A DNA stretch of 40,105 nt from Clostridia bacterium (GTDB lineage: Bacteria > Bacillota > Clostridia > Christensenellales > UBA1242). This document shows, piece after piece, positions 2,676 through 26,216 of this stretch. Where the stretch lies: assembly GCA_028694075.1 (NCBI GenBank), contig JAQUUD010000001.1:1-40105 (forward strand), written 5' to 3'. The notes under the pieces were generated by a model, which saw only the letters and a program-made list of their open reading frames with translations, was not told the DNA's origin and made no database searches. The first letter of the stretch is position 1; every line of letters begins with the position of its first letter. Position numbers and translations under genes: made by a program.

Positions 2676-2700
2676 GCACTTTTGTGCTTTGTTTTTTAGT

Positions 2701-3066
2701 TATCAGTTAGTCTGTAAGCCGAGTTCTGTATTAAATGGTCATCTATCTAGATGATATATCTCTATATCATTCAAGCGGTATTTTTGGATAACGCGAGAGA
2801 ACAAGCGCATATGTTATCACTTAACCTTGCTTCAAGTGGGGTTTACATGGCACATCTTGTTACCAAGATGTCGGTGGTCTCTTACACCGCCTTTTCACCA
2901 TCACCGCAATTTTAAAAATAAATTTAATTTCACGGCAGTATATTTCTGTTGCACTTTCCTTAGAGTTGCCTCCACCGGCAGTTAACCGGCACCCAGTTCT
3001 CTTAAAGCTCGGACTTTCCTCGGAACTGTCATTATAACAATCCCGCGACCATCTGGCTAGCTGACA
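2701..3066 (-). ncRNA. rnpB: RNase P RNA, bacterial class A
   Basis: The minus strand contains GAGGAAAGUCCGAGC (reverse complement of 3007..3021). It also contains GGAAAGUGCAACAGAAAUAUACUGCCG, GGUGUAAGAGACCACC, GUAAACCCCACUUGAAGCAAGG and ACAGAACUCGGCUUACAG. A P1-like pairing joins 3057..3066 and 2701..2710. The layout parallels E. coli M1 RNA. Confidence 0.93.
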
Positions 3067-3146: not shown

Positions 3147-3730
3147 CGCGGACCAGCCAAACGAACAAAGCGAGCGGGCGTTAGCAGAGCGAGCGGGCGT
3201 TAGCAGGGCGAGCGGTCAGTTCCAGCCAAACGGACAAAGCGAGCGGGCGTTAGCAGGGCGAGCGGGCAGTTCCAGCCAAACGGACAAAGCGAGCGGGCGT
3301 TAGCAGAGCAAGCGGGCGTTAGCAGAGCGAGCGGTCAGTTCCAGCCAAACGAACAAAGCGAGCGGGCGTTAGCAGGGCGAGCGGGCGTTAGCAGGGCGAG
3401 CGGGCGTTAGCAGGGCGAGCGGGCAGTTCCAGCCAAACGGACAAAGCGAGCGGGCGTTAGCAGGGCGAGCGGGCGTTAGCAAAGCAAGCGGACAAGTCAA
3501 CCAAACGGACAAAGCGAGCGGGCGTTAGCAGAGCAAGCGGGCGTTAGCAGGGCGAGCGGTCAGTTCCAGCCAAACGGACAAAGCGAGCGGGCGTTAGCAA
3601 AGCAAGCGGACAAGCCAACCAAACGGGCAAAGCGAGCGGGCGAAGCGAAGCAAGCAGGGCGAGCGTCAAGCCAGTCAAACGGACAGAGCGAGCGGACAAA
3701 TCAACAGTCAAACGGGCTGGTCAAACAGGC
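3147..3730. repeat. GC-rich hierarchical tandem-repeat array A
   Basis: About 9-10 super-units. Each has a 22-nt punctuation (cagttccagccaaacggacaaa), then 1-3 copies of the 19-nt unit gcgagcgggcgttagcagg, then a 9-nt partial unit. The + strand is G-rich and T-poor. The array degenerates toward its right end. Confidence 0.9.
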
Positions 3731-3732
3731 TT

Positions 3733-3776
3733 TAAAAAAAATTAATCAGGTTACTGGTTAAGCGGTAACCTGATTA
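3733..3776 (-). terminator. Rho-independent terminator of rnhA
   Basis: A 12-bp stem taatcaggttac/gtaacctgatta (3743..3754 with 3765..3776) is followed on the minus strand by a T8 run. Confidence 0.75.
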
Positions 3777-3873
3777 CTTGGTAAATAAATTTATTTGATT
3801 TTTAAAAATATTTTAGATTTGTTACGCATCTTAAAAATTCAACAATAAAATTTGAGCGGAGCGATAATAAAAC

Positions 3874-4323
3874 TTACTTTTTTTCGCCAATAATTTTTTG
3901 AACTTCATTTCTTGCAAGTTCGTCACAGCGGTTGTTATAAATATTACTTGAATGCCCTTTTATTTTATGCCAATTAACTCGATGTTGTTTTGTTAATTCA
4001 ATTAATTGTTTCCAAAGGTCTTGATTTAAAACCGGCTTTTTATCAGAAGTTTTCCAATTGTTGTTTATCCAATTTGTCGTCCAACTTTGAATAAAAGCAT
4101 TAATAACATAAGCGCTGTCTGAATATACATCAACTATGCAAATTTCTTTTAAGGCTTGTAATCCTTTTATAATTGCCGTGAGTTCCATTCGGTTATTTGT
4201 TGTTTCAGGCTCACCGCCGGACAATTCTTTCAATGCTTTTTGATGCAATAAAATAGCGCCCCAGCCACCCGGGCCGGGATTATATGAACAAGCACCATCA
4301 GTATATAAAACAACTCTTTTCAT
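3874..4323 (-). CDS. rnhA: Ribonuclease HI
   Basis: MKRVVLYTDGACSYNPGPGGWGAILL... is the canonical RNase HI N-terminus, with the catalytic Asp at residue 9. The ORF was trimmed from 4353 to the ATG at 4323 because the extension lies inside the tRNA. Confidence 0.9.
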   Translation of the reverse strand: MKRVVLYTDGACSYNPGPGGWGAILLHQKALKELSGGEPETTNNRMELTAIIKGLQALKEICIVDVYSDSAYVINAFIQSWTTNWINNNWKTSDKKPVLNQDLWKQLIELTKQHRVNWHKIKGHSSNIYNNRCDELARNEVQKIIGEKK

Positions 4324-4397
4324 TGGCAGGGATGGAAGGAATCGAACCCTCAAAGCTGGTTTTGGAGACCAGAGCTATACCATTTAACTACATCCCT
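4324..4397 (-). tRNA. trnW: tRNA-Trp (anticodon CCA) with encoded 3' CCA
   Basis: The minus strand reads AGGGATGTAGTTAAATGGTATAGCTCTGGTCTCCAAAACCAGCTTTGAGGGTTCGATTCCTTCCATCCCTGCCA. The acceptor stem is AGGGATG/CATCCCT, the anticodon stem is CTGGT/ACCAG, the loop is CTCCAAA, and the T-loop is GGTTCGATTCC. Confidence 0.93.
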
Positions 4398-5951: not shown

Positions 5952-6111
5952 ATTTAATCCTTTAATTAAGATTATCACGCATTTAGTATTATTTTGTCAA
6001 GTTATTTGCTTTAAAATATATTTTTTGTTTATTTTAATATAAATTTCAAGATTTAGGTGTCTTTTTATTGTTTGTCAATTTATTATAATTTTAGCAGTGC
6101 CCGCTAATTAA

Positions 6112-6218
6112 CCGGCGAAGCCGGCGGGCGTTTGCCGTGCAAACGCCCGTGCGATATGCTTGGGGCAAGCCCCAAGCATATCGCCAAATCGCTTTCAGCG
6201 ATTTTTCGGCTTCGCCGG
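6112..6218. repeat. Nested perfect palindrome: 12-bp closing stem enclosing three hairpins
   Basis: Closing stem ccggcgaagccg (6112..6123) pairs with cggcttcgccgg (6207..6218). Arms are cgggcgtttgc-cgt-gcaaacgcccg, gcgatatgcttgggg-caa(g)-ccccaagcatatcgc and aaatcgct-ttc-agcgattt. Confidence 0.85.
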
Positions 6219-6470: not shown

Positions 6471-7892
6471 TCACAACCTAAGCGGAGCCTCCCCGCATAC
6501 ATTTTGTTCGCACTTGTTATAATACATATAAGCAACTTTATCGCCTCGTGTATTTTTTAAAATTTTTGCAAATATTTCTTTTGCCTGATGACATTTTCCC
6601 AAATTAAAATATCGCACTGCCTGTTCAAACTGAGTTTTATCACTTTCCATTTTATCTCGCTTTCTCTTATCATAATATTCCAAACTTTCAAAAAGTGAAG
6701 TATATTCCTTATCATCTTCAAATGTCAATGTGCCCACATATCTATATGCCAGCGGGTAATCAATTTTTAGCGAATTTAAAGTGCGTTTTGAAAAAATTAT
6801 TTTTGAGCCGAAATACTCATTAAAATTGTTCATTTTTGAAGCAAGATTAACAGCATCAGAAATGATTGTCGGGCTTTTTCTTTCTTCTTCCCCAACAATT
6901 CCAAAAACAACTTCGCCAGTGTTTACGCTTATGCCAACTTCTAAATTTGGTAAATTTTTGGTGTTCATATTTTTATTGTCAACTGCCTTGCTTATCGCAA
7001 CCGAACATTCAAGCGCATTTTCAGGTTTAATAAAAACCGCTAAAATGCCGTCACCCAAATATTTATCCACAAAACCGTTAAACTTCCGAATAATCGGAGA
7101 TACAACATTCAAATATGAATTAATATAATTAAAATTTTCTTCCAAACTTAATGTTGTGCTTGTTGATGTGGAATGATGAATATCAACAAACATTGTTGTA
7201 ATTTCTTTTTGCACCTGATTTCCAAGTTCCAATTCAAGAATACTGCTTTTGCCTAAAAATCTCAAAAATTGTTTAGGCACATATTTTTCATATTCTAAGT
7301 TTGTCTTTTTAATTATATTTTCTTTTTCCTTAAAGTTTTCATTTATTTTATTCAATGAATTTTCAATTTCCCCAAATTGTTTACTTCCGCCAATTTGAAT
7401 GTCGCTGGCAACTCTTCCGCTACTTAATCTGCGAACAGAATCTTGCACTTTTTTCAGCGGTCTGCAAGCAAATTTAAACGATATAAACAAAATTATCAAA
7501 TATGCAATAACGGCAAGTGCCAACCAAAGATATTGATTATTATTCACTTCATTTACATTCAAAAATTCGCGGACATACTCAGACTGCGTATCCTGCATAG
7601 TATTTAAATTCAATATATAAAAACTTAAAATAGCAAAAGTTAAGGTGACTGGAATTGTTACAAAAAACAAAACTCTATTAAACGGCTGAGAAGCAAGAAA
7701 CCTGAAAAACAACACATTAAAACTTACTGCGTTCAAAATTATAAATCCAAGCCCGATATAACCCAGCAATGAAAAATTAAAACTGATGCCGTTATCCAAA
7801 ATTATGCCGTCGGAAACAGCACCGCCCAAAAGCAAACTTAGTACGGTTGAAATGATGAATAATACAATCCAAATTTTCGTGCTTGTTCTCAT
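6471..7892 (-). CDS. Membrane-bound class III adenylate/guanylate cyclase (TM region, HAMP-like linker, cyclase domain, C-terminal TPR-like tail)
   Basis: Cyclase core MFVDIHHSTS...FVDKYLGDGILAVF...VGISVNTGEVVFGIVG, with multiple N-terminal TM helices. The start is uncertain: no candidate has an SD, and the ORF is open to 7973. Confidence 0.85.
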   Translation of the reverse strand: MRTSTKIWIVLFIISTVLSLLLGGAVSDGIILDNGISFNFSLLGYIGLGFIILNAVSFNVLFFRFLASQPFNRVLFFVTIPVTLTFAILSFYILNLNTMQDTQSEYVREFLNVNEVNNNQYLWLALAVIAYLIILFISFKFACRPLKKVQDSVRRLSSGRVASDIQIGGSKQFGEIENSLNKINENFKEKENIIKKTNLEYEKYVPKQFLRFLGKSSILELELGNQVQKEITTMFVDIHHSTSTSTTLSLEENFNYINSYLNVVSPIIRKFNGFVDKYLGDGILAVFIKPENALECSVAISKAVDNKNMNTKNLPNLEVGISVNTGEVVFGIVGEEERKSPTIISDAVNLASKMNNFNEYFGSKIIFSKRTLNSLKIDYPLAYRYVGTLTFEDDKEYTSLFESLEYYDKRKRDKMESDKTQFEQAVRYFNLGKCHQAKEIFAKILKNTRGDKVAYMYYNKCEQNVCGEAPLRL

Positions 7893-8620: not shown

Positions 8621-9709
8621 TTAAATAAACTCAAATTCTTTATCTGACGTTGTTGAATAAATTGTAATGCTTCCGTCATTATTTAAACATCTATTCAAGC
8701 CCATAAGTTTTCTTAAAGTTTTCATTGTGCTGTATGCGTGAATATCTTTATGTTCACCTTTTGCAAGAAAATACATATCAAGTTCTGTGTAAATATTTTC
8801 AACATCTAAAACCACAATAACCACTTTTTGTCCAGTTCTTGCAAGCACTGTTGCGTGATTTATTGCATTATTAACCGCTTCAAATGCATATAAAGGTTCA
8901 TTTTCAAAATAACTAACAAAATCTGTAAACTTTGTTATATATTTTTGAATTTTCAACAAACCGTCAGCTGGCACTCCAACTGCAACTATAAACAAAGAGT
9001 AGCCTTTTTTTACTAATTCATTTAACACATTTGCTTTTTTTTCAATAAATTCCATTCTGCTTGGGCTATAAATGTGTGTTTTTGAGCCTTCTTTAATATT
9101 ATCAACTATTTCAACATTGTCGTTTAATACGACATCTTTTATTGAGCAAAATTTTCGGAAACAATTTTCAAATTTTTTTCCGTTTAATTTTTCAATATCC
9201 CGTGCCATAAAATAATTTTTGCCTTTAACACCTGAAGCAATAACCGACAAATAATCTCCGGAAACTAAACCAAATTGTGCAACCAGCACATCAGGCACAT
9301 ATACCAAATCATCATCTGTTGTGCAAAAATAATAATCGTGATTGTGTTTTATGAGATAACCTTGCTTGTGTTCCATTACGCTATTAATTTCATTTTCTTC
9401 ATTTTGAGCAAACGGCAAGAACCTGTCAATTAAGATAGTATCCTTATTACGTTGTTCAGCAAAATCAAGAAGTTCCTTTGGTAATAAATCTTCCTGAAAT
9501 CCTCTTGCCATAAGTTTATTTTTAATCGGACGACCGGCTTTTTGTTTCACTGCCAATTTTTTTTCGCCTGACATAATTTGTATTATTTCATTTATCAACT
9601 TTTCTTTTTTCATAATTGTGGGAGAAGGCACGCCCCACATACGTGCGATGTTTCTCAGGTCGTGAACACCTAAATTTTCCAGTTGCAATTTTCTTTCTGC
9701 TAAATCCAT
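8621..9709 (-). CDS. Rho-derived protein: Rho_N domain, Rho-like RNA-binding OB fold and a degenerate RecA-like domain
   Basis: The N-terminus LENLGVHDLRNIARMWGV...KEKLINEIIQ resembles Rho_N. GYLIKHNHDYYF...LVYVPDVLVAQFGLVSGDYLSV parallels Rho GFGFLR...DIYVSPSQIRRFNLRTGD. The positions of Walker A (GSKTHIYSPSRMEFIE) and Walker B (VIVVLDVEN) lack GKT and the acidic catalytic context. Confidence 0.7.
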   Translation of the reverse strand: MDLAERKLQLENLGVHDLRNIARMWGVPSPTIMKKEKLINEIIQIMSGEKKLAVKQKAGRPIKNKLMARGFQEDLLPKELLDFAEQRNKDTILIDRFLPFAQNEENEINSVMEHKQGYLIKHNHDYYFCTTDDDLVYVPDVLVAQFGLVSGDYLSVIASGVKGKNYFMARDIEKLNGKKFENCFRKFCSIKDVVLNDNVEIVDNIKEGSKTHIYSPSRMEFIEKKANVLNELVKKGYSLFIVAVGVPADGLLKIQKYITKFTDFVSYFENEPLYAFEAVNNAINHATVLARTGQKVVIVVLDVENIYTELDMYFLAKGEHKDIHAYSTMKTLRKLMGLNRCLNNDGSITIYSTTSDKEFEFI

Positions 9710-9956: not shown

Positions 9957-10282
9957 TGGCGAAGTCAAACAAATCAAACGGACAAGTCGAACAAGTCAAA
10001 CGGACAAAGCGAGCGGGCGAAGCGGAGCGGAGCAGGGCGAGCGGGCGAAGCGGAGCGAGCGGGCGGAGCAGGGCGAGCGGGCGAAGCGGAGCGAGCGGGC
10101 GGAGCAGGGCGAGCGGGCGAAGCGGAGCGAGCGGGCAACAGTCAAACGGACAAGTCGAACTGGTCAAACGGACAAGTCGAACTGGTCGAACGGACAAGTC
10201 GAACTGGTCGAACGGACAAGTCGAACTGGTCGAACGGACAAAGCGAGCGGACAACAAGTCAAACGGACAAGTCAAACAAAAA
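9957..10282. repeat. GC-rich tandem-repeat array B (two sub-arrays)
   Basis: Sub-array 1 has 18-nt units gcgagcgggcgaagcgga and gcgagcgggcggagcagg alternating, giving a 36-nt super-period with about 3.5 copies (10009..10136). Sub-array 2 has the 22-nt unit ggacaagtcgaactggtcgaac in about 5 copies (10146..10240). The array is flanked by GTCAAAC(A/G) motifs. The + strand is nearly T-free. Confidence 0.9.
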
Positions 10283-10386
10283 GCGGGCAGGGAAGCAAAT
10301 TTTTGACCTTCAAGTCAAAAATTTTCAGCAAAACTGATTCAAGTTTTGCTGAACAAGCCTTTAAAGGCTTGTTCTTCCCTGCCCGC
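10283..10386. repeat. Nested perfect palindrome: 13-bp closing stem enclosing three hairpins, abutting array B
   Basis: Closing stem gcgggcagggaag (10283..10295) pairs with cttccctgcccgc (10374..10386). Arms are aaatttttgac-cttcaa-gtcaaaaattt, cagcaaaact-gattca-agttttgctg and aacaagcct-ttaa-aggcttgtt. On the minus strand it is followed by TTTTTGTTTG. Confidence 0.88.
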
Positions 10387-10533
10387 AATTTAGTTGGTAA
10401 AAATCCTAAAATATTAAATTATCTTTACAATAATCAATCAAATATTAATCTTACTTCAATTTAATTATTCTCAATATACTTTTTAAATTAAAATTAAAAT
10501 TCTTTACTGAACTTTTTATAAATAAATTTTTTT

Positions 10534-10599
10534 ATAAACTAAATTTTCTTATAAACTAAATTTTCTTATAAACTAAATTTTCTTATAAACTAAATTTTC
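10534..10599. repeat. AT-rich 17-nt tandem repeat, about 3.9 copies
   Basis: The unit ataaactaaattttctt is repeated perfectly at 10534, 10551 and 10568, with a partial copy at 10585. It lies just downstream of the ypeB stop. Confidence 0.9.
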
Positions 10600-13088: not shown

Positions 13089-13607
13089 ATGAAATATTTA
13101 GCCATAACACTTTCAATTATTGCAATGCTCGGTATACTTATTTTTTCACAGCCTTTGGCAGTTGAAGCAAGCGATTATTTAAGAATTCATATTCGCGCAA
13201 ACTCAAACAGTGAACAAGACCAAAATGTTAAATATCAAGTTAAAGATGCTATTGTGGATTATCTTATTCCTTTATTATCCACTTGTGAAAGCAAGGAAGA
13301 TGCACAAAAAACGATTGAACAAAATTTAGTCAATCTTGAAGCAGTTGCGGATAATGTTTTAATGCAAAATAATTTTAATTATGCAAGCAATGCAAAATTA
13401 AATTATGAAAATTTCCCTGCGAGAAATTATGGAAACTTAACTTTGGAAAGCGGATTTTATGATGCTTTGATTATGGAATTAGGCGAGGCAGATGGCGATA
13501 ACTGGTGGTGCATTGTTTATCCGCCATTATGCTTCATCAACGGCAGTACATCTGTAAGTTCATATAAAAGTAGAATTTTAGAAATCATTAATTCCTTCTT
13601 TGATTAA
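13089..13607 (+). CDS. spoIIR: Stage II sporulation protein R
   Basis: Signal peptide followed by YLRIHIRANSNSEQDQNVKYQVKDAIVDYL and ...GDNWWCIVYPPLCF, which are SpoIIR hallmarks. The RBS is aaggagaaacaATG. Confidence 0.9.
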   Translation: MKYLAITLSIIAMLGILIFSQPLAVEASDYLRIHIRANSNSEQDQNVKYQVKDAIVDYLIPLLSTCESKEDAQKTIEQNLVNLEAVADNVLMQNNFNYASNAKLNYENFPARNYGNLTLESGFYDALIMELGEADGDNWWCIVYPPLCFINGSTSVSSYKSRILEIINSFFD

Positions 13608-13642
13608 AAAAAACTTTGTTTTGTAAATAATAGTTGATTAAA

Positions 13643-13743
13643 ACGGCGACTAAAAGGAAATTTTGCAAACGCAAAATTTTTCAAGATAAAATCTTGGGCT
13701 TGATTTTAAGCGTACGCTTAAAATCAAGCCTTTTAGTCGCCGT
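13643..13743. repeat. Nested perfect palindrome: 15-bp closing stem enclosing three hairpins
   Basis: Closing stem acggcgactaaaagg (13643..13657) pairs with ccttttagtcgccgt (13729..13743). Arms are aaattttgc-aaac-gcaaaattt, caagat-aaa-atcttg and the 32-nt perfect palindrome gcttgattttaagcg-ta-cgcttaaaatcaagc. Confidence 0.88.
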
Positions 13744-13929
13744 GTTCGCTTTCGTGCGATTTAATATGCTATATGTTCGTTCACTTGAAGTTAGAAAAAA
13801 TGCCAAAAGTAAATATACTTTCGACATTTTTTTAATCGTGTTTTTTGATTTTTTTTTAATAAAAACTAGATGTCTTTTATTATTAATTTATAATTACAAT
13901 TATATGTTTTTTATTAATGAATAAAATTT

Positions 13930-19242: not shown

Positions 19243-19526
19243 TAAATTCTCCTTTTTTTAAAACATTGTTTTATTTTCATAAATTCAAAATATTTATTAA
19301 ATATTCCAATTATTCTATTTTTGCTTTGATTTGTGTTTGTTCATTACTCGTTTTGTTTAAATTTATCCTACAACTTGCATATAAATATATTACTTAAATT
19401 CAACAAATTAATAAATTTTTTTAAGTTTATAATACCACAATTTCTAAAAATGTCAATAATAAAAAATTTCAAAAATTCTTCAATAAACTGAAAAAAATTT
19501 GGGTTTGTATTTATTAAATTTCAAAA

Positions 19527-19572
19527 AAACCAGCCCGCCCGCTCGCGACAAGTTAATGCACACTCGCCAATT
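19527..19572. repeat. Solo GC-rich repeat core in inverted orientation
   Basis: ccagcccgcccgctcgcgac carries the reverse complement of GCGAGCGGGCGGG. It lies upstream of a + strand gene. Confidence 0.5.
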
Positions 19573-19787
19573 CTTCTAATTTTAACTCGATCATTTTTTT
19601 AATAATGATATTTCCAATTTGTCAGTAATTAAAAATATTCAAATTGAGTAATTTATTAAATATTTTAATAATTTTCAATATTTTAGTTAACTTATAAAAT
19701 TAATTCGTATAAAATCGCTTATATTAATAATGCTAATTATATCTATATTAAATTATTTGCTAGTATAAAAAATTACTAAGCTTTCAG

Positions 19788-19816
19788 TTGACTTATGCAG
19801 AATAATGGATTATTAT
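19788..19816 (+). promoter_or_regulatory. Putative sigma-A promoter for the 19871 gene
   Basis: TTGACT-17 nt-TATTAT, about 55 nt upstream of the start codon. Confidence 0.45.
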
Positions 19817-19870
19817 AAAATAATTTGTAATGCATATTTTAATTAATATAAAAAATGGAGGATTTACAAA

Positions 19871-21175
19871 ATGTTTATGTCAAATAAAGGAATGCAAAAA
19901 CTTATTGCAAGCGGAATCGCATTGCTTATGTCGTTGACAGCACTGTTTGTGACAGCTTGGGCAATTTTAAGCACTGAAAAAGTGGGTTTGAGTGTTAATA
20001 TATCTTTTGACCCAGCAGTCACCACCAAAGTCTATTTGGCAACGGACAGTAGTTCGGCGGTGGATTTCAAACAACCGAATTCAACTGTAACTGCTGAAAA
20101 CTTTGCAAAAGCAAATTCAGCTTTGATTTTAGACACCAAAGATGGAAACTCACTTCAAAAAGACGCATTTGAACTATTGGGTGCGGACAATGGTTTGAAA
20201 TGCGATGCAAACGGCGAAATGGAGTTTTATGTTTTTGTTGAAAATTACAGCGAAACTGAGAGCGTCTATTATCGTGCAAATATAAACTTTGTTGGCACGG
20301 GCGAACAAGTTGCACCATTTAGCACAGTAACTAACCCTAGTTTTGAAACCGCCGGAACTGCCTTGGGAGTTGAAAGCCCTTCCATAAGCCTGCTTATCTT
20401 TAAAATTCTATCTGATAGTGACACGGGATTAAACGCAAACACAATTCAAATTGAGATTGATTTATCTACATCATTCGCTTCAATATTGGGTTTAGCACAA
20501 TATACTTCTGGAAATTATAGTGGGCTTTTTTATATTGACATGGGGGAATATCCACAAACACAAGAAATAAACACTGAAATAATATCAGGTATAACTGGTG
20601 AACCCGATGCAAATAATTATTATACAAGTTCAGTAAATGGAGAAAAATATGCTAGAAGAGGCACCGATCCAAATTATACTTACTATTTAGTCGAACCAGT
20701 AAGATGGCTTGTTATAGGAAATAGCGGAACTTATGCTGATTTTCCTAATAAAAACTTTGATACTTTAGGATCTAACCAACTGCTCTTAATTAGCGAAAAT
20801 TTAATATCTGCATCAACTTATAGTGTCAATTTAAATAATCCATTAGGAAATACAATATTTAGTGATTTAGAAAAAAATAAATTAAGCAAGTTCGGAAATA
20901 ATCAATATCTTTACTCGTTGTCAAAAGACACAGAAGGTTATCCATATAGAATCGATTATTATTTAACTGTAAATCAAAGTAGATGTTCACCAACAGCATA
21001 TGCTTCTTCAATATTAAATTTATATGCTTCTGATAGATTTTGGGTACAAAGTCAAAATTATGCAGCAACGCTGAAAAAATATGCAATTCATAGTAATATG
21101 GGAACCTATTATTCTTCTGTTTCTGAAACTACTAATATTCTTTTAGTTCGCTCTACAATCATTTTAAATTTTTAA
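19871..21175 (+). CDS. Secreted or anchored protein: conserved N-terminal beta-rich domain plus DUF6273-like C-terminal domain (paralogue 1)
   Basis: RBS ggaggatttacaaaATG and signal anchor MQKLIASGIALLMSLTALFV. The N-terminal ~200 aa are highly similar to the 23759 gene. The C-terminus has EPVRWLVIGN, NQLLLISE, RFWVQS and VRSTIILNF, resembling the DUF6273 motifs W.VL, LLLS, WWLRS and GVRPA. Confidence 0.8.
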   Translation: MFMSNKGMQKLIASGIALLMSLTALFVTAWAILSTEKVGLSVNISFDPAVTTKVYLATDSSSAVDFKQPNSTVTAENFAKANSALILDTKDGNSLQKDAFELLGADNGLKCDANGEMEFYVFVENYSETESVYYRANINFVGTGEQVAPFSTVTNPSFETAGTALGVESPSISLLIFKILSDSDTGLNANTIQIEIDLSTSFASILGLAQYTSGNYSGLFYIDMGEYPQTQEINTEIISGITGEPDANNYYTSSVNGEKYARRGTDPNYTYYLVEPVRWLVIGNSGTYADFPNKNFDTLGSNQLLLISENLISASTYSVNLNNPLGNTIFSDLEKNKLSKFGNNQYLYSLSKDTEGYPYRIDYYLTVNQSRCSPTAYASSILNLYASDRFWVQSQNYAATLKKYAIHSNMGTYYSSVSETTNILLVRSTIILNF

Positions 21176-21409
21176 ATAAGAATACAAACAAACTCCAGTT
21201 AAAATATTTTGCAGGAATTTGTTATTTAAATAAATTAGTTATAATAAATTATTTGCAAAAAGTATTTCGTCGGAGTTATGTTTTAAATAAATTCTTAAAA
21301 TAATTATTTTATAGAACTATCTTTATTAAGTTTAATTCGACAAAAAACTGATAGCAAAAAAATTTCATAGTTTTAGTAATTTTGATAATAGTTTTTTAAA
21401 GAAAGATAT

Positions 21410-21503
21410 TTCGCCGGCAGAGGTTGGCTTTGAAAAAGCCAACGCAAACACGAAAGTGTTTGCTGGGATTTGAGATTTTCTCAAATCCCGCTCTGCCGGC
21501 GAA
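21410..21503. repeat. Nested perfect palindrome: 13-bp closing stem enclosing three hairpins
   Basis: Closing stem ttcgccggcagag (21410..21422) pairs with ctctgccggcgaa (21491..21503). Arms are gttggcttt-gaa-aaagccaac, gcaaacac-gaaa-gtgtttgc and gggatttgaga-ttt-tctcaaatccc. A T-rich tract follows on the + strand. Confidence 0.88.
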
Positions 21504-21767
21504 TTTTATTTTATAACTAAACTTTTCAATTCACTTCTTAATTAAACTAAACTGATTTTAAAAAAGCAATGAATAATGTTAAACAATATAGAGTTTTTTA
21601 TTCGCTAACGAATATTATAATTCATTTCTTCTTAACTAAATTATATTATATCAAATAAAATTTAATATAAAAAATCAACAAGCCTTTTATTCTAGCCTAT
21701 CCACTAATAAAATCTTAATTGTTCTTGATTAGAATTTAACATTTATAAGTTGGTTAAGTCTATGTGT

Positions 21768-25958: not shown

Positions 25959-26216
25959 GGTCTAACGGGCAAATCAAACGGGTCAAACGGACCGAGCGAG
26001 CGGGCGAGCCAGAGTCTAACGGGCAATTCAAACGGGTCAAACGGACCGAGCGAGCGGGCGAGCCAGAGTCTAACGGGCAATTCAAACGGGTCTAACGGAC
26101 CGAGCGAGCGGGCGAGCCAGAGTCTAACGGGCAATTCAAACGGGTCTAACGGACCGAGCGAGCGGGCGAGCCAGAGTCTAACGGGCAATTCAAACGGGTC
26201 TAACGGACAAATCAAA
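25959..26216. repeat. GC-rich tandem-repeat array C (54-nt period, about 4.5 copies)
   Basis: The unit gtctaacgggcaattcaaacgggtc(t/a)aacggaccgagcgagcgggcgagccaga has ACCGAG phase markers at 25991, 26045, 26099 and 26153. It shares the GCGAGCGGGCG and CAAACGGG/TAACGGAC motifs with arrays A and B. Confidence 0.9.

Follow-up and report, generated by a model that had tools for sequence, protein, structure and literature searches.

A three-hairpin palindromic unit behind spoIIR in an uncultured Clostridia bacterium: a possible lineage-specific transcript-end element

The sporulation gene spoIIR of an uncultured 'Clostridia bacterium', represented by a contig of a MAG, is followed closely by a 101-base stretch in which one long perfect stem encloses three perfect hairpins, and the locus raises the question of what such a structure is and what it does between two convergent genes. 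The terminator-stem category has been defined as a single hairpin with a U-run (PMC11109978), and single, tandem, convergent and 'cluster' hairpin terminators have been described (PMC8355165). Families of structured intergenic repeats form single or double hairpins, sometimes 'complex' ones, and often fold on both strands (PMC2267715; PMC3333891). In the literature that we searched, no closing stem with exactly three perfect hairpins is described. In this study, we analysed this structure, here called copy C, together with the whole stretch of 40,105 nucleotides in which it lies (the window) and with sequences from related lineages. We regard the three-hairpin unit as a variant within the structured intergenic palindromic repeats and terminator-like elements and not as a new category; it is apparently undescribed.

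Anatomy and setting of copy C

Copy C occupies positions 13643–13743 of the window and begins 36 nt past the spoIIR stop codon. Direct reading and a repeat finder confirm the architecture given by the earlier note, namely a 15-bp closing stem, three perfect hairpins and a 32-nt palindrome. The arms of the perfect closing stem, ACGGCGACTAAAAGG (13643–13657, GC-rich in the outer 8 bp) and CCTTTTAGTCGCCGT (13729–13743), enclose three abutting hairpins, so that a four-way junction is predicted. Hairpin 1 (13658–13679; AAATTTTGC-AAAC-GCAAAATTT) has a 9-bp perfect stem and a 4-nt loop, and hairpin 2 (13682–13696; CAAGAT-AAA-ATCTTG) has a 6-bp perfect stem and a 3-nt loop. Hairpin 3 corresponds to the perfect palindrome of 32 nt at 13698–13729, which extends to 34 nt (13697–13730) and forms a stem of 15–17 bp; its last base or bases have a choice of partner, there or in the closing stem, which lets the register of the junction slide. 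Only 2–3 bases of the junction are unpaired.

Folded as RNA, the plus strand of copy C reaches −55.6 kcal/mol (z −10.3), with none of 200 shuffles equally good, and the minus strand reaches −53.3 kcal/mol (z −8.9); as single-stranded DNA the value is −40 kcal/mol (z −11.4). One ENA assembly and two Logan assemblies show the sequence without a single base difference, and both Logan contigs end within the 32-nt palindrome, a typical assembler break. Chance or artefact is ruled out as the origin of copy C, given 0 elements in 200 shuffles and identity in three independent assemblies.

The flanking genes are convergent and are those proposed from the sequence at the outset: spoIIR matches Pfam Spore_II_R (8.7e-43) and its neighbour encodes a SipL/SPOCS protein. 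A 96-aa ORF (13634–13924) that spans copy C had been called spurious, and it is, since its frame is interrupted by frame-breaking indels across the ORF in the closest relative, L004, which is 94% identical in SpoIIR. Copy C shares with intrinsic terminators a stable hairpin, a GC-rich stem base and a position downstream of a stop codon. It has no U-tract of about 7–9 nt directly after the stem on either strand, and its T-tails are weak (GTTCGCTTTC on the plus strand, 5/10 T; TTTAATCAAC on the minus strand, 4/10 T); the initial judgement that no good T-run follows on either strand and that a simple terminator role is insufficient thus holds.

Searches for a known RNA gave no identity. Above the gathering threshold, Rfam reports only RNase P and one tRNA over the window; for positions 13600–13800 its best weak matches fall far under threshold (for example 23 bits against 100) and none appears at permissive thresholds, which rules out a known RNA family for copy C. 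The two genes that were found are a class A RNase P RNA (258 bits; 2699–3064) and tRNA-Trp (4324–4397), both on the minus strand, and a 159-aa ORF (3874–4353) overlapping the latter is probably spurious. A closing stem with three hairpin arms meeting in a four-way junction is also the plan of the tRNA cloverleaf. The stems of the units are, however, two to three times longer and conserved D, anticodon and T loops are absent; neither ARAGORN nor the Rfam tRNA model calls the units. A tRNA-like gene is excluded on these grounds: ARAGORN finds only tRNA-Trp at 4324–4397, the stems of the element measure 6–17 bp and its loops are unconserved.

A family held together by shape

Under a strict definition (closing stem of at least 10 bp, three hairpins, at least 90% of the interior within hairpins), the 40-kb window contains four elements and 200 dinucleotide shuffles contain none. 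Copy C had been described as one of several copies that share an architecture and differ in their arms. Both statements stand, the arms of all four copies being unrelated in sequence, but the other copies number three (A, B and D) and not two. Copy A (6112–6218) has a 12-bp closing stem with hairpins of 11, 16 and 8 bp. It is 63% GC inside a spacer of about 20% GC, and lies downstream of a cyclase-domain gene (stop at 6471) and upstream of the promoter-like site of an MscS gene. A small hairpin made of array-like words, TTAGC-AGTGCCC-GCTAA (6091–6107), ends 4 nt before it. Copy B (10283–10386; 13-bp closing stem, hairpins of 11, 11 and 8 bp) is located downstream of ypeB, and TTTTTGTTTG follows it on the strand of that gene. 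Copy D (21410–21503; closing stem of 11–13 bp, hairpins of 9, 8 and 12 bp) is followed by AATTTTATTTT on the plus strand and sits between a convergent 434-aa ORF and nifU. In their AT-rich spacers, copies A, B and D stand out as GC-rich islands and as the sole strong structures, and promoter-like sites for the next gene lie beyond copies A and B.

The family was surveyed in 1.24 Mb of non-redundant sequence from about 80 related lineages. A lax, energy-based census gave many false multiloops in GC-rich coding DNA and was filtered; the strict census contains 13 elements in nine lineages, with the clade of the window the densest (four in 40 kb) and about 70 loci holding none. Every strict element has exactly three inner hairpins, and no strict two- or four-hairpin analogue was found in the 1.24 Mb. 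Each of the 14 instances lies between genes and faces one stop codon or more, and none of them occupies a spacer between divergent promoters. Like the stems of terminators, the closing stems are rich in GC, in a genome of 32% GC, and the units are 3–6 times as stable as the local simple terminators. A T-rich tail on the relevant strand is present in copy B and its orthologs (8–9/10 T), copy D, the L008 unit (on both sides), both L055 copies, L029 and L037, and is absent from copy C, from copy A on the strand of its gene and from L075; the background probability of at least 6 T in 10 is about 0.19. Copy C shows every property of the family: a perfect closing stem of at least 10 bp, precisely three perfect hairpins that abut, at most three unpaired junction bases, an intergenic position and an adjacent stop codon.

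The pairing of these units is unusually pure. Their stems contain 299 A–T, 251 G–C and seven G–U pairs, the last (1.3%) mostly at junction edges, against 7.3% G–U (249/3,414) in ordinary hairpin-plus-T-run terminators of 58 low-GC loci in the census set. Between homologous copies, seven pairs changed on both sides yet stayed Watson–Crick and one change was one-sided, and 15–45% of the unpaired positions changed. Judged from these comparisons, it is the structure that is conserved in the three-hairpin units and not the loop sequence.

Sequence homology joins some of the copies. Orthologs of copy B occur in L005, L010, L093 and L135, and L008 has a paralog at its spoIIR site; the sequence of this paralog is homologous to copy B itself and to the orthologs that follow ypeB in L005 and L010 (71% column identity). 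Relatives whose spacers cannot otherwise be aligned still keep the B-type unit at the ypeB site, and the sequence of its closing stem is conserved among them. A covariance model derived from copy B, its L005 and L010 orthologs and the L008 paralog scores these four at E 1e-17 to 1e-19, gives copy C 19.9 bits (E about 0.3) and misses copies A and D; copy C therefore has the architecture of B with no demonstrable sequence homology to it. A marginal match of this model in L073 is noise. A single covariance model for all copies failed, since hairpin 2 could not be aligned by MAFFT and the B-derived model misses A and D. A homolog of copy D in L010 (about 85% identity) lies at a non-orthologous locus and its likeness is confined to the unit. 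L055 carries two near-identical copies 2.8 kb apart, whose homology starts with the first closing-stem base, ends with the T-run and lies between unrelated flanks. This unit-bounded likeness indicates that the units are discrete and dispersed. In L037, a three-hairpin cassette is duplicated in tandem (544–612 and 672–751; period about 128 nt) with different outer closing sequences, and its hairpin words GCAAAAT/ATTTTGC and CAAGCGT resemble those of copy C.

We also looked for hosts and partners of the units. When 241 million metagenome records were scanned for B-type arms, 104 stretches matched, but only two of them proved genuine; these represent the ypeB locus in near-identical strains, and one of the two differs by a single loop base. 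As only the orthologous locus is recovered, there is no high-copy identical family, and a high-copy mobile family is rejected. The scan also met an unrelated 104-nt repeat, GGCAGGGAAGGGCTTTCCAAAAC...GTTTTGGAAAGCCCTTCCCTGCC, at L094, L096, L101, L110, L136, L150, L162, L173, L191 and L195. This repeat comes from genomes with a GC content of about 60%; a 23-bp closing stem surrounds its branched interior, and it recurs nearly unchanged on many contigs with its interior in both orientations; its match to the B-arm pattern is a chance one. Apart from one 25-nt chance match, 50,697 phage and 72,556 plasmid records show no likeness to the elements. The arms of copies A, C and D are absent from IMG/VR, and its eight viral matches to the B pattern all lack the three-hairpin interior. 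An origin from a phage, plasmid or mobile element is rejected on these searches.

No transposase or recombinase, Y1 (RAYT) included, is encoded in the 40-kb window, and no direct repeat that could be a target-site duplication flanks A, B, C, D or either L055 copy. The 434-aa ORF beside copy D has an N-terminal signal or membrane segment and matches no family. It forms with copy D a segment of about 2.5 kb (19243–21767) between a DUF4116 gene and nifU; these two genes are adjacent in L005 and L008, so the segment is a lineage-specific insertion. A 362-aa protein (8621–9709, minus strand), conserved in relatives, lies directly downstream of copy B and a C-rich array. Its N-terminal 180 or so residues bear a weak likeness to Rho (Pfam Rho_N 3.6e-05; NCBIfam Rho 35 bits, cut-off 315), and it has no ATPase domain. 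A partner protein beside the elements is thus rejected, the 434-aa ORF having no family, the 362-aa protein lying far under the Rho cut-offs and a transposase being absent.

The window further contains three intergenic G/A-rich, nearly T-free tandem arrays (3153–3686, 9962–10277 and 25960–26208) with units of 18–69 nt, among them AGCGGAGCGAGCGGGCGA, GTCGAACGGACAAGTCGAACTG and one of 54 nt that recurs 4.6 times (98% identity); a 20-bp near-perfect hairpin (3740–3779) closes the first. All three lie downstream of minus-strand genes, which makes their sense RNA C-rich and G-poor, and it may be asked whether this RNA resembles a Rho-loading site. Words of these arrays (GCGGGCG, AGCAGGGCGAGC) are similar to the closing arm of copy B and to hairpin 1 of copy A. 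Among the approximately 80 lineages the arrays occur only in the species of the window itself; they are therefore no general partner of the three-hairpin elements, and a link between the two is rejected. A 17-nt AT-rich tandem repeat, TTATAAACTAAATTTTC (10516–10599; five copies, 97% matches), lies between the ypeB stop and copy B in a spacer of 906 nt that measures only about 75 nt in relatives.

History of the spoIIR–sipL site

The order ypeB–sleB–spoIIR, convergent with sipL–veg, is conserved in relatives, and the site can be followed among them. The architecture of copy C is kept in L004, where two of 11 loop bases are changed and one loop base is inserted; the loop of hairpin 1 has become GAAA instead of AAAC. 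One G–C pair is replaced by A–T, a compensated change, one change breaks a pair and another lengthens hairpin 2 to 8 bp. In L005 (76% SpoIIR identity) and in L205, L207, L209/L210 and L211 (65–68%) the site has no three-hairpin element. Their spacers, of 23–170 nt, contain one canonical bidirectional terminator, which in L205, L207, L209/L210 and L211 has the form AAAAAATG..CATTTTTT. This presence and absence across relatives, which the earlier note had proposed to compare, places copy C at 94–100% SpoIIR identity and its absence at 76% or less, a bracket within which the databases hold no intermediates and whose boundaries are blurred by diverged spacers.

The same spacer of the window contains a second structure. 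About 50 nt beyond copy C, a simple hairpin between an A-run and a T-run (13795–13838, minus strand; AAAAAATGCC..GACATTTTTTT) is fully paired, with two G–U pairs, only on the minus (sipL) strand, and is the ortholog of the single canonical bidirectional terminator of six relatives. Because the hairpin of the window and of L004 shares its ends with the terminator of the relatives, the hairpin at 13795–13838 is ancestral and copy C was added later, on the spoIIR side. The predicted energies are −17.6 kcal/mol on the sipL strand and −9.9 kcal/mol on the spoIIR strand in the window, −13.8 and −5.1 kcal/mol (the latter with z −1.4) in L004, and −10.2 kcal/mol on both strands in L207. The strand asymmetry has thus arisen in just the lineage that carries copy C, and the hairpin exemplifies a bidirectional terminator turning unidirectional.

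By these comparisons, the site originally had a single simple bidirectional terminator; copy C was gained on the spoIIR side in this lineage and is not a barrier common to both genes. The earlier suggestion of a bidirectional barrier survives in part: a role at transcript ends is backed by the family context, but copy C was added on the spoIIR side only. A barrier shared by both genes has to be given up, the same spacer holding the ancestral hairpin that is strong on the sipL strand. Decay of the old terminator on the spoIIR strand is a plausible reason for the presence of copy C 36 nt past the spoIIR stop.

A three-hairpin unit has also come to occupy this site elsewhere. In L008/L009 (72%), a unit of other sequence lies between AAAAA and TTTTTT at the spoIIR–sipL site and is the sole structure of the 129-nt spacer. 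The B-type unit that follows ypeB in the window, L005 and L010 has as its counterpart in L008 only a simple hairpin flanked by A- and T-runs (7383–7420). The 3′ arm of this hairpin is the B-type closing arm CTTCCCTGC, and the structure may be a collapsed B-type unit that has lost its interior.

Transcript ends and the rival readings

We tentatively favour, at a little under an even chance, the reading of copy C as a lineage-specific, strand-symmetric transcript-end element, acting as a terminator or as an exonuclease barrier and having the nature of a REP-like repeat. That the element is transcribed, and terminates or protects the transcript, we infer from its sequence and position. Copy C is one member of a lineage-restricted intergenic four-way-junction family with GC-rich closing stems of 10–15 bp. 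Since all pairs are Watson–Crick, RNA from either strand would take the same fold. The three inner hairpins would presumably fold first on leaving the polymerase and bring the closing arms side by side; the GC-rich closing stem of 13–15 bp could then zip quickly behind the polymerase despite an interior of 70–80 nt. Stem closure would pause or terminate transcription, efficiently with a U-tract and weakly, or aided by Nus factors, without one, and the structure left at the 3′ end would block 3′-to-5′ exonucleases. Copy C would serve the spoIIR side, the old bidirectional terminator having decayed until it is strong only on the sipL strand. The units would spread as discrete repeats, their pairing probably being renewed by template-switch correction together with selection.

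Several lines of evidence support a function at transcript ends. The fold exceeds chance by far on both strands, the units lie on the stop-codon side, the closing stem is GC-rich and most members have A- and T-runs. At the orthologous spoIIR–sipL site, the L008 unit is interchangeable with a simple bidirectional terminator. The ancestral hairpin is asymmetric between strands in the window and L004 and symmetric in L207; structure is kept through compensated changes, and copies A, B and D are the sole strong structures in their spacers. The resemblance to intrinsic and bidirectional terminators is close in the position behind stop codons, the GC-rich stem base, the folding of both strands and, in most members of the unit family, the A-run before and the T-run after the unit. 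What takes the place of the loop is, however, a 60–80-nt domain of three perfect hairpins, copy C and L075 have no usable U-tract, and G–U pairs make up 1.3% instead of 7.3%. The 'cluster hairpin' and U/V/X-shaped terminators (Gupta and Pal, 2021, PMC8355165, where the WebGeSTer classes are cited) are similar in having adjacent hairpins behind a stop codon and in their proposed lesser dependence on a U-tract. They differ in that the hairpins stand side by side without a long closing stem, and the article's account of these classes describes no fixed number of hairpins and no perfect pairing.

Other observations weigh against this function. The U-tracts are poor in copy C and absent in L075. 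Copy C is a gain and relatives manage with a simple hairpin, so in principle the element is dispensable. Why a terminator should have exactly three hairpins is not obvious, and the scarcity of G–U is unexplained by selection on one RNA strand alone; it points to a constraint on both strands or on the DNA, or to a mutational mechanism.

The main rival follows from the behaviour of the units as dispersed repeats and from their purity, which fits template switching. According to this reading, which we consider possible though rather unlikely, the units are selfish or neutral palindromic DNA that settles where it does least harm, behind genes, and may even profit from such positions; they would be either REP- or MITE-like repeats or products of template-switch-prone replication, which would also inflate the spacers of this clade. 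Its further proposal, that perfect pairing is kept by hairpin-templated correction and that copy C has no specific local function, seems to us doubtful to the same degree. Template-switch mutation has been demonstrated to give rise to hairpins and also to preserve those that are perfect, and it predicts both the scarcity of G–U and the direct switches between different Watson–Crick pairs that are seen here (PMC8794818). The exact bounding of the L055 homology by the unit plus T-run, the occurrence of B-type and D-type units at non-orthologous loci in different genomes, the lineage-specific gain of copy C and the tandem duplication of the L037 cassette are all in keeping with it, as are the inflated, repeat-filled spacers of the element-rich clade (322 against 23–111 nt; 906 against about 75 nt). 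On the other hand, the four copies of the window are unrelated in sequence, the B-type model missing A and D and reaching C only at E about 0.3, and the scan of 241 million metagenome records for B-type arms gives only the orthologous locus. Target-site duplications are not seen, a transposase or recombinase is absent from the window, and the retention of the B-type unit at the ypeB site with a conserved closing-stem sequence argues for selection.

The comparison with known repeats is similarly divided. Like REP/BIME, ERIC, BOX, RUP, Correia and bcr1 elements, the units are dispersed, discrete, palindromic and intergenic (PMC3333891; PMC2267715); members of these families, too, often lie in 3′ untranslated regions and fold from either strand, and roles in mRNA stabilisation and termination have been attributed to them. 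The known families are, however, single or double hairpins with a recognisable consensus and many near-identical copies per genome, whereas here it is the shape that is conserved, the four copies in 40 kb are unrelated and a near-identical pair occurs only in L055. The closing arms could count as the terminal inverted repeats of a MITE, but target-site duplications are lacking.

A role at the level of DNA is improbable, although some properties suit it. As single-stranded DNA or as an extruded cruciform, the unit might mimic a Holliday junction for a structure-specific protein such as a recombinase, resolvase, primosome, HUH nuclease or nucleoid protein. Both strands, and likewise the DNA, give an equally good fold, the pairing is 98.7% Watson–Crick with practically no unpaired junction bases and always three arms, which would fit recognition of shape, and the loops are unconserved. 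Against this, no candidate partner gene was found near any copy, the steady position at stop codons and the flanking A- and T-runs are unexpected for a site of replication or recombination, and the units have no likeness to plasmid or phage origins or attachment sites. Two known structures offer partial parallels. The AAV inverted terminal repeat is T-shaped, with two inner arms (a three-way junction), lies at the ends of a linear single-stranded genome and primes replication. The parvovirus/AAV repeat resembles the units in that an outer stem surrounds small perfect inner palindromes and the opposite strand shows the stems reversed ('flip/flop'); the units differ in having three arms, an interstitial chromosomal site and no associated Rep protein. 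Integron attC sites are single imperfect hairpins with extrahelical bases, strand-specific and arrayed beside an integrase. As in the units, attC copies differ in sequence but keep their structure, and attC sites function as a folded single strand; the imperfect hairpin, the extrahelical bases, the strand specificity and the arrays beside an integrase are all absent in the units.

A bolder proposal along the same lines takes the units for a shape-defined class of elements, a perfect four-way junction that mimics a Holliday junction and is maintained by dedicated machinery or by template-switch self-renewal; we give it little credence. Nor do we hold it any likelier that the three-arm geometry and the all-Watson–Crick pairing form a recognition code, in DNA or RNA, of which the terminator-like behaviour is a by-product.

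Least likely of all is that the units are independent small RNA genes, or that RNase III processes transcripts there and thereby separates or destabilises them: the long perfect helices, including the 22–30-bp perfect duplex that a closing stem coaxially stacked on a hairpin would give, and the untranslated spacers would suit it, but the units have no conserved unpaired nucleotides, no Rfam family and no promoter-like site placed specifically before them, and copies wholly different in sequence are unlike trans-acting small RNAs.

Whichever of these readings applies, the conserved feature, which is not represented in Rfam, is the geometry of a four-way junction, kept by compensated changes while sequences diverge completely. 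The units explain assembly breaks in these genomes and spurious ORFs such as that at 13634–13924. If they are kept perfect by template switching, they would offer a clean, naturally occurring case in which to study the making and renewal of hairpins by replication. If, as we tentatively favour, they stop or protect transcripts, they would be natural, very stable and orientation-independent insulators, and would show the replacement of a simple terminator by a complex one.
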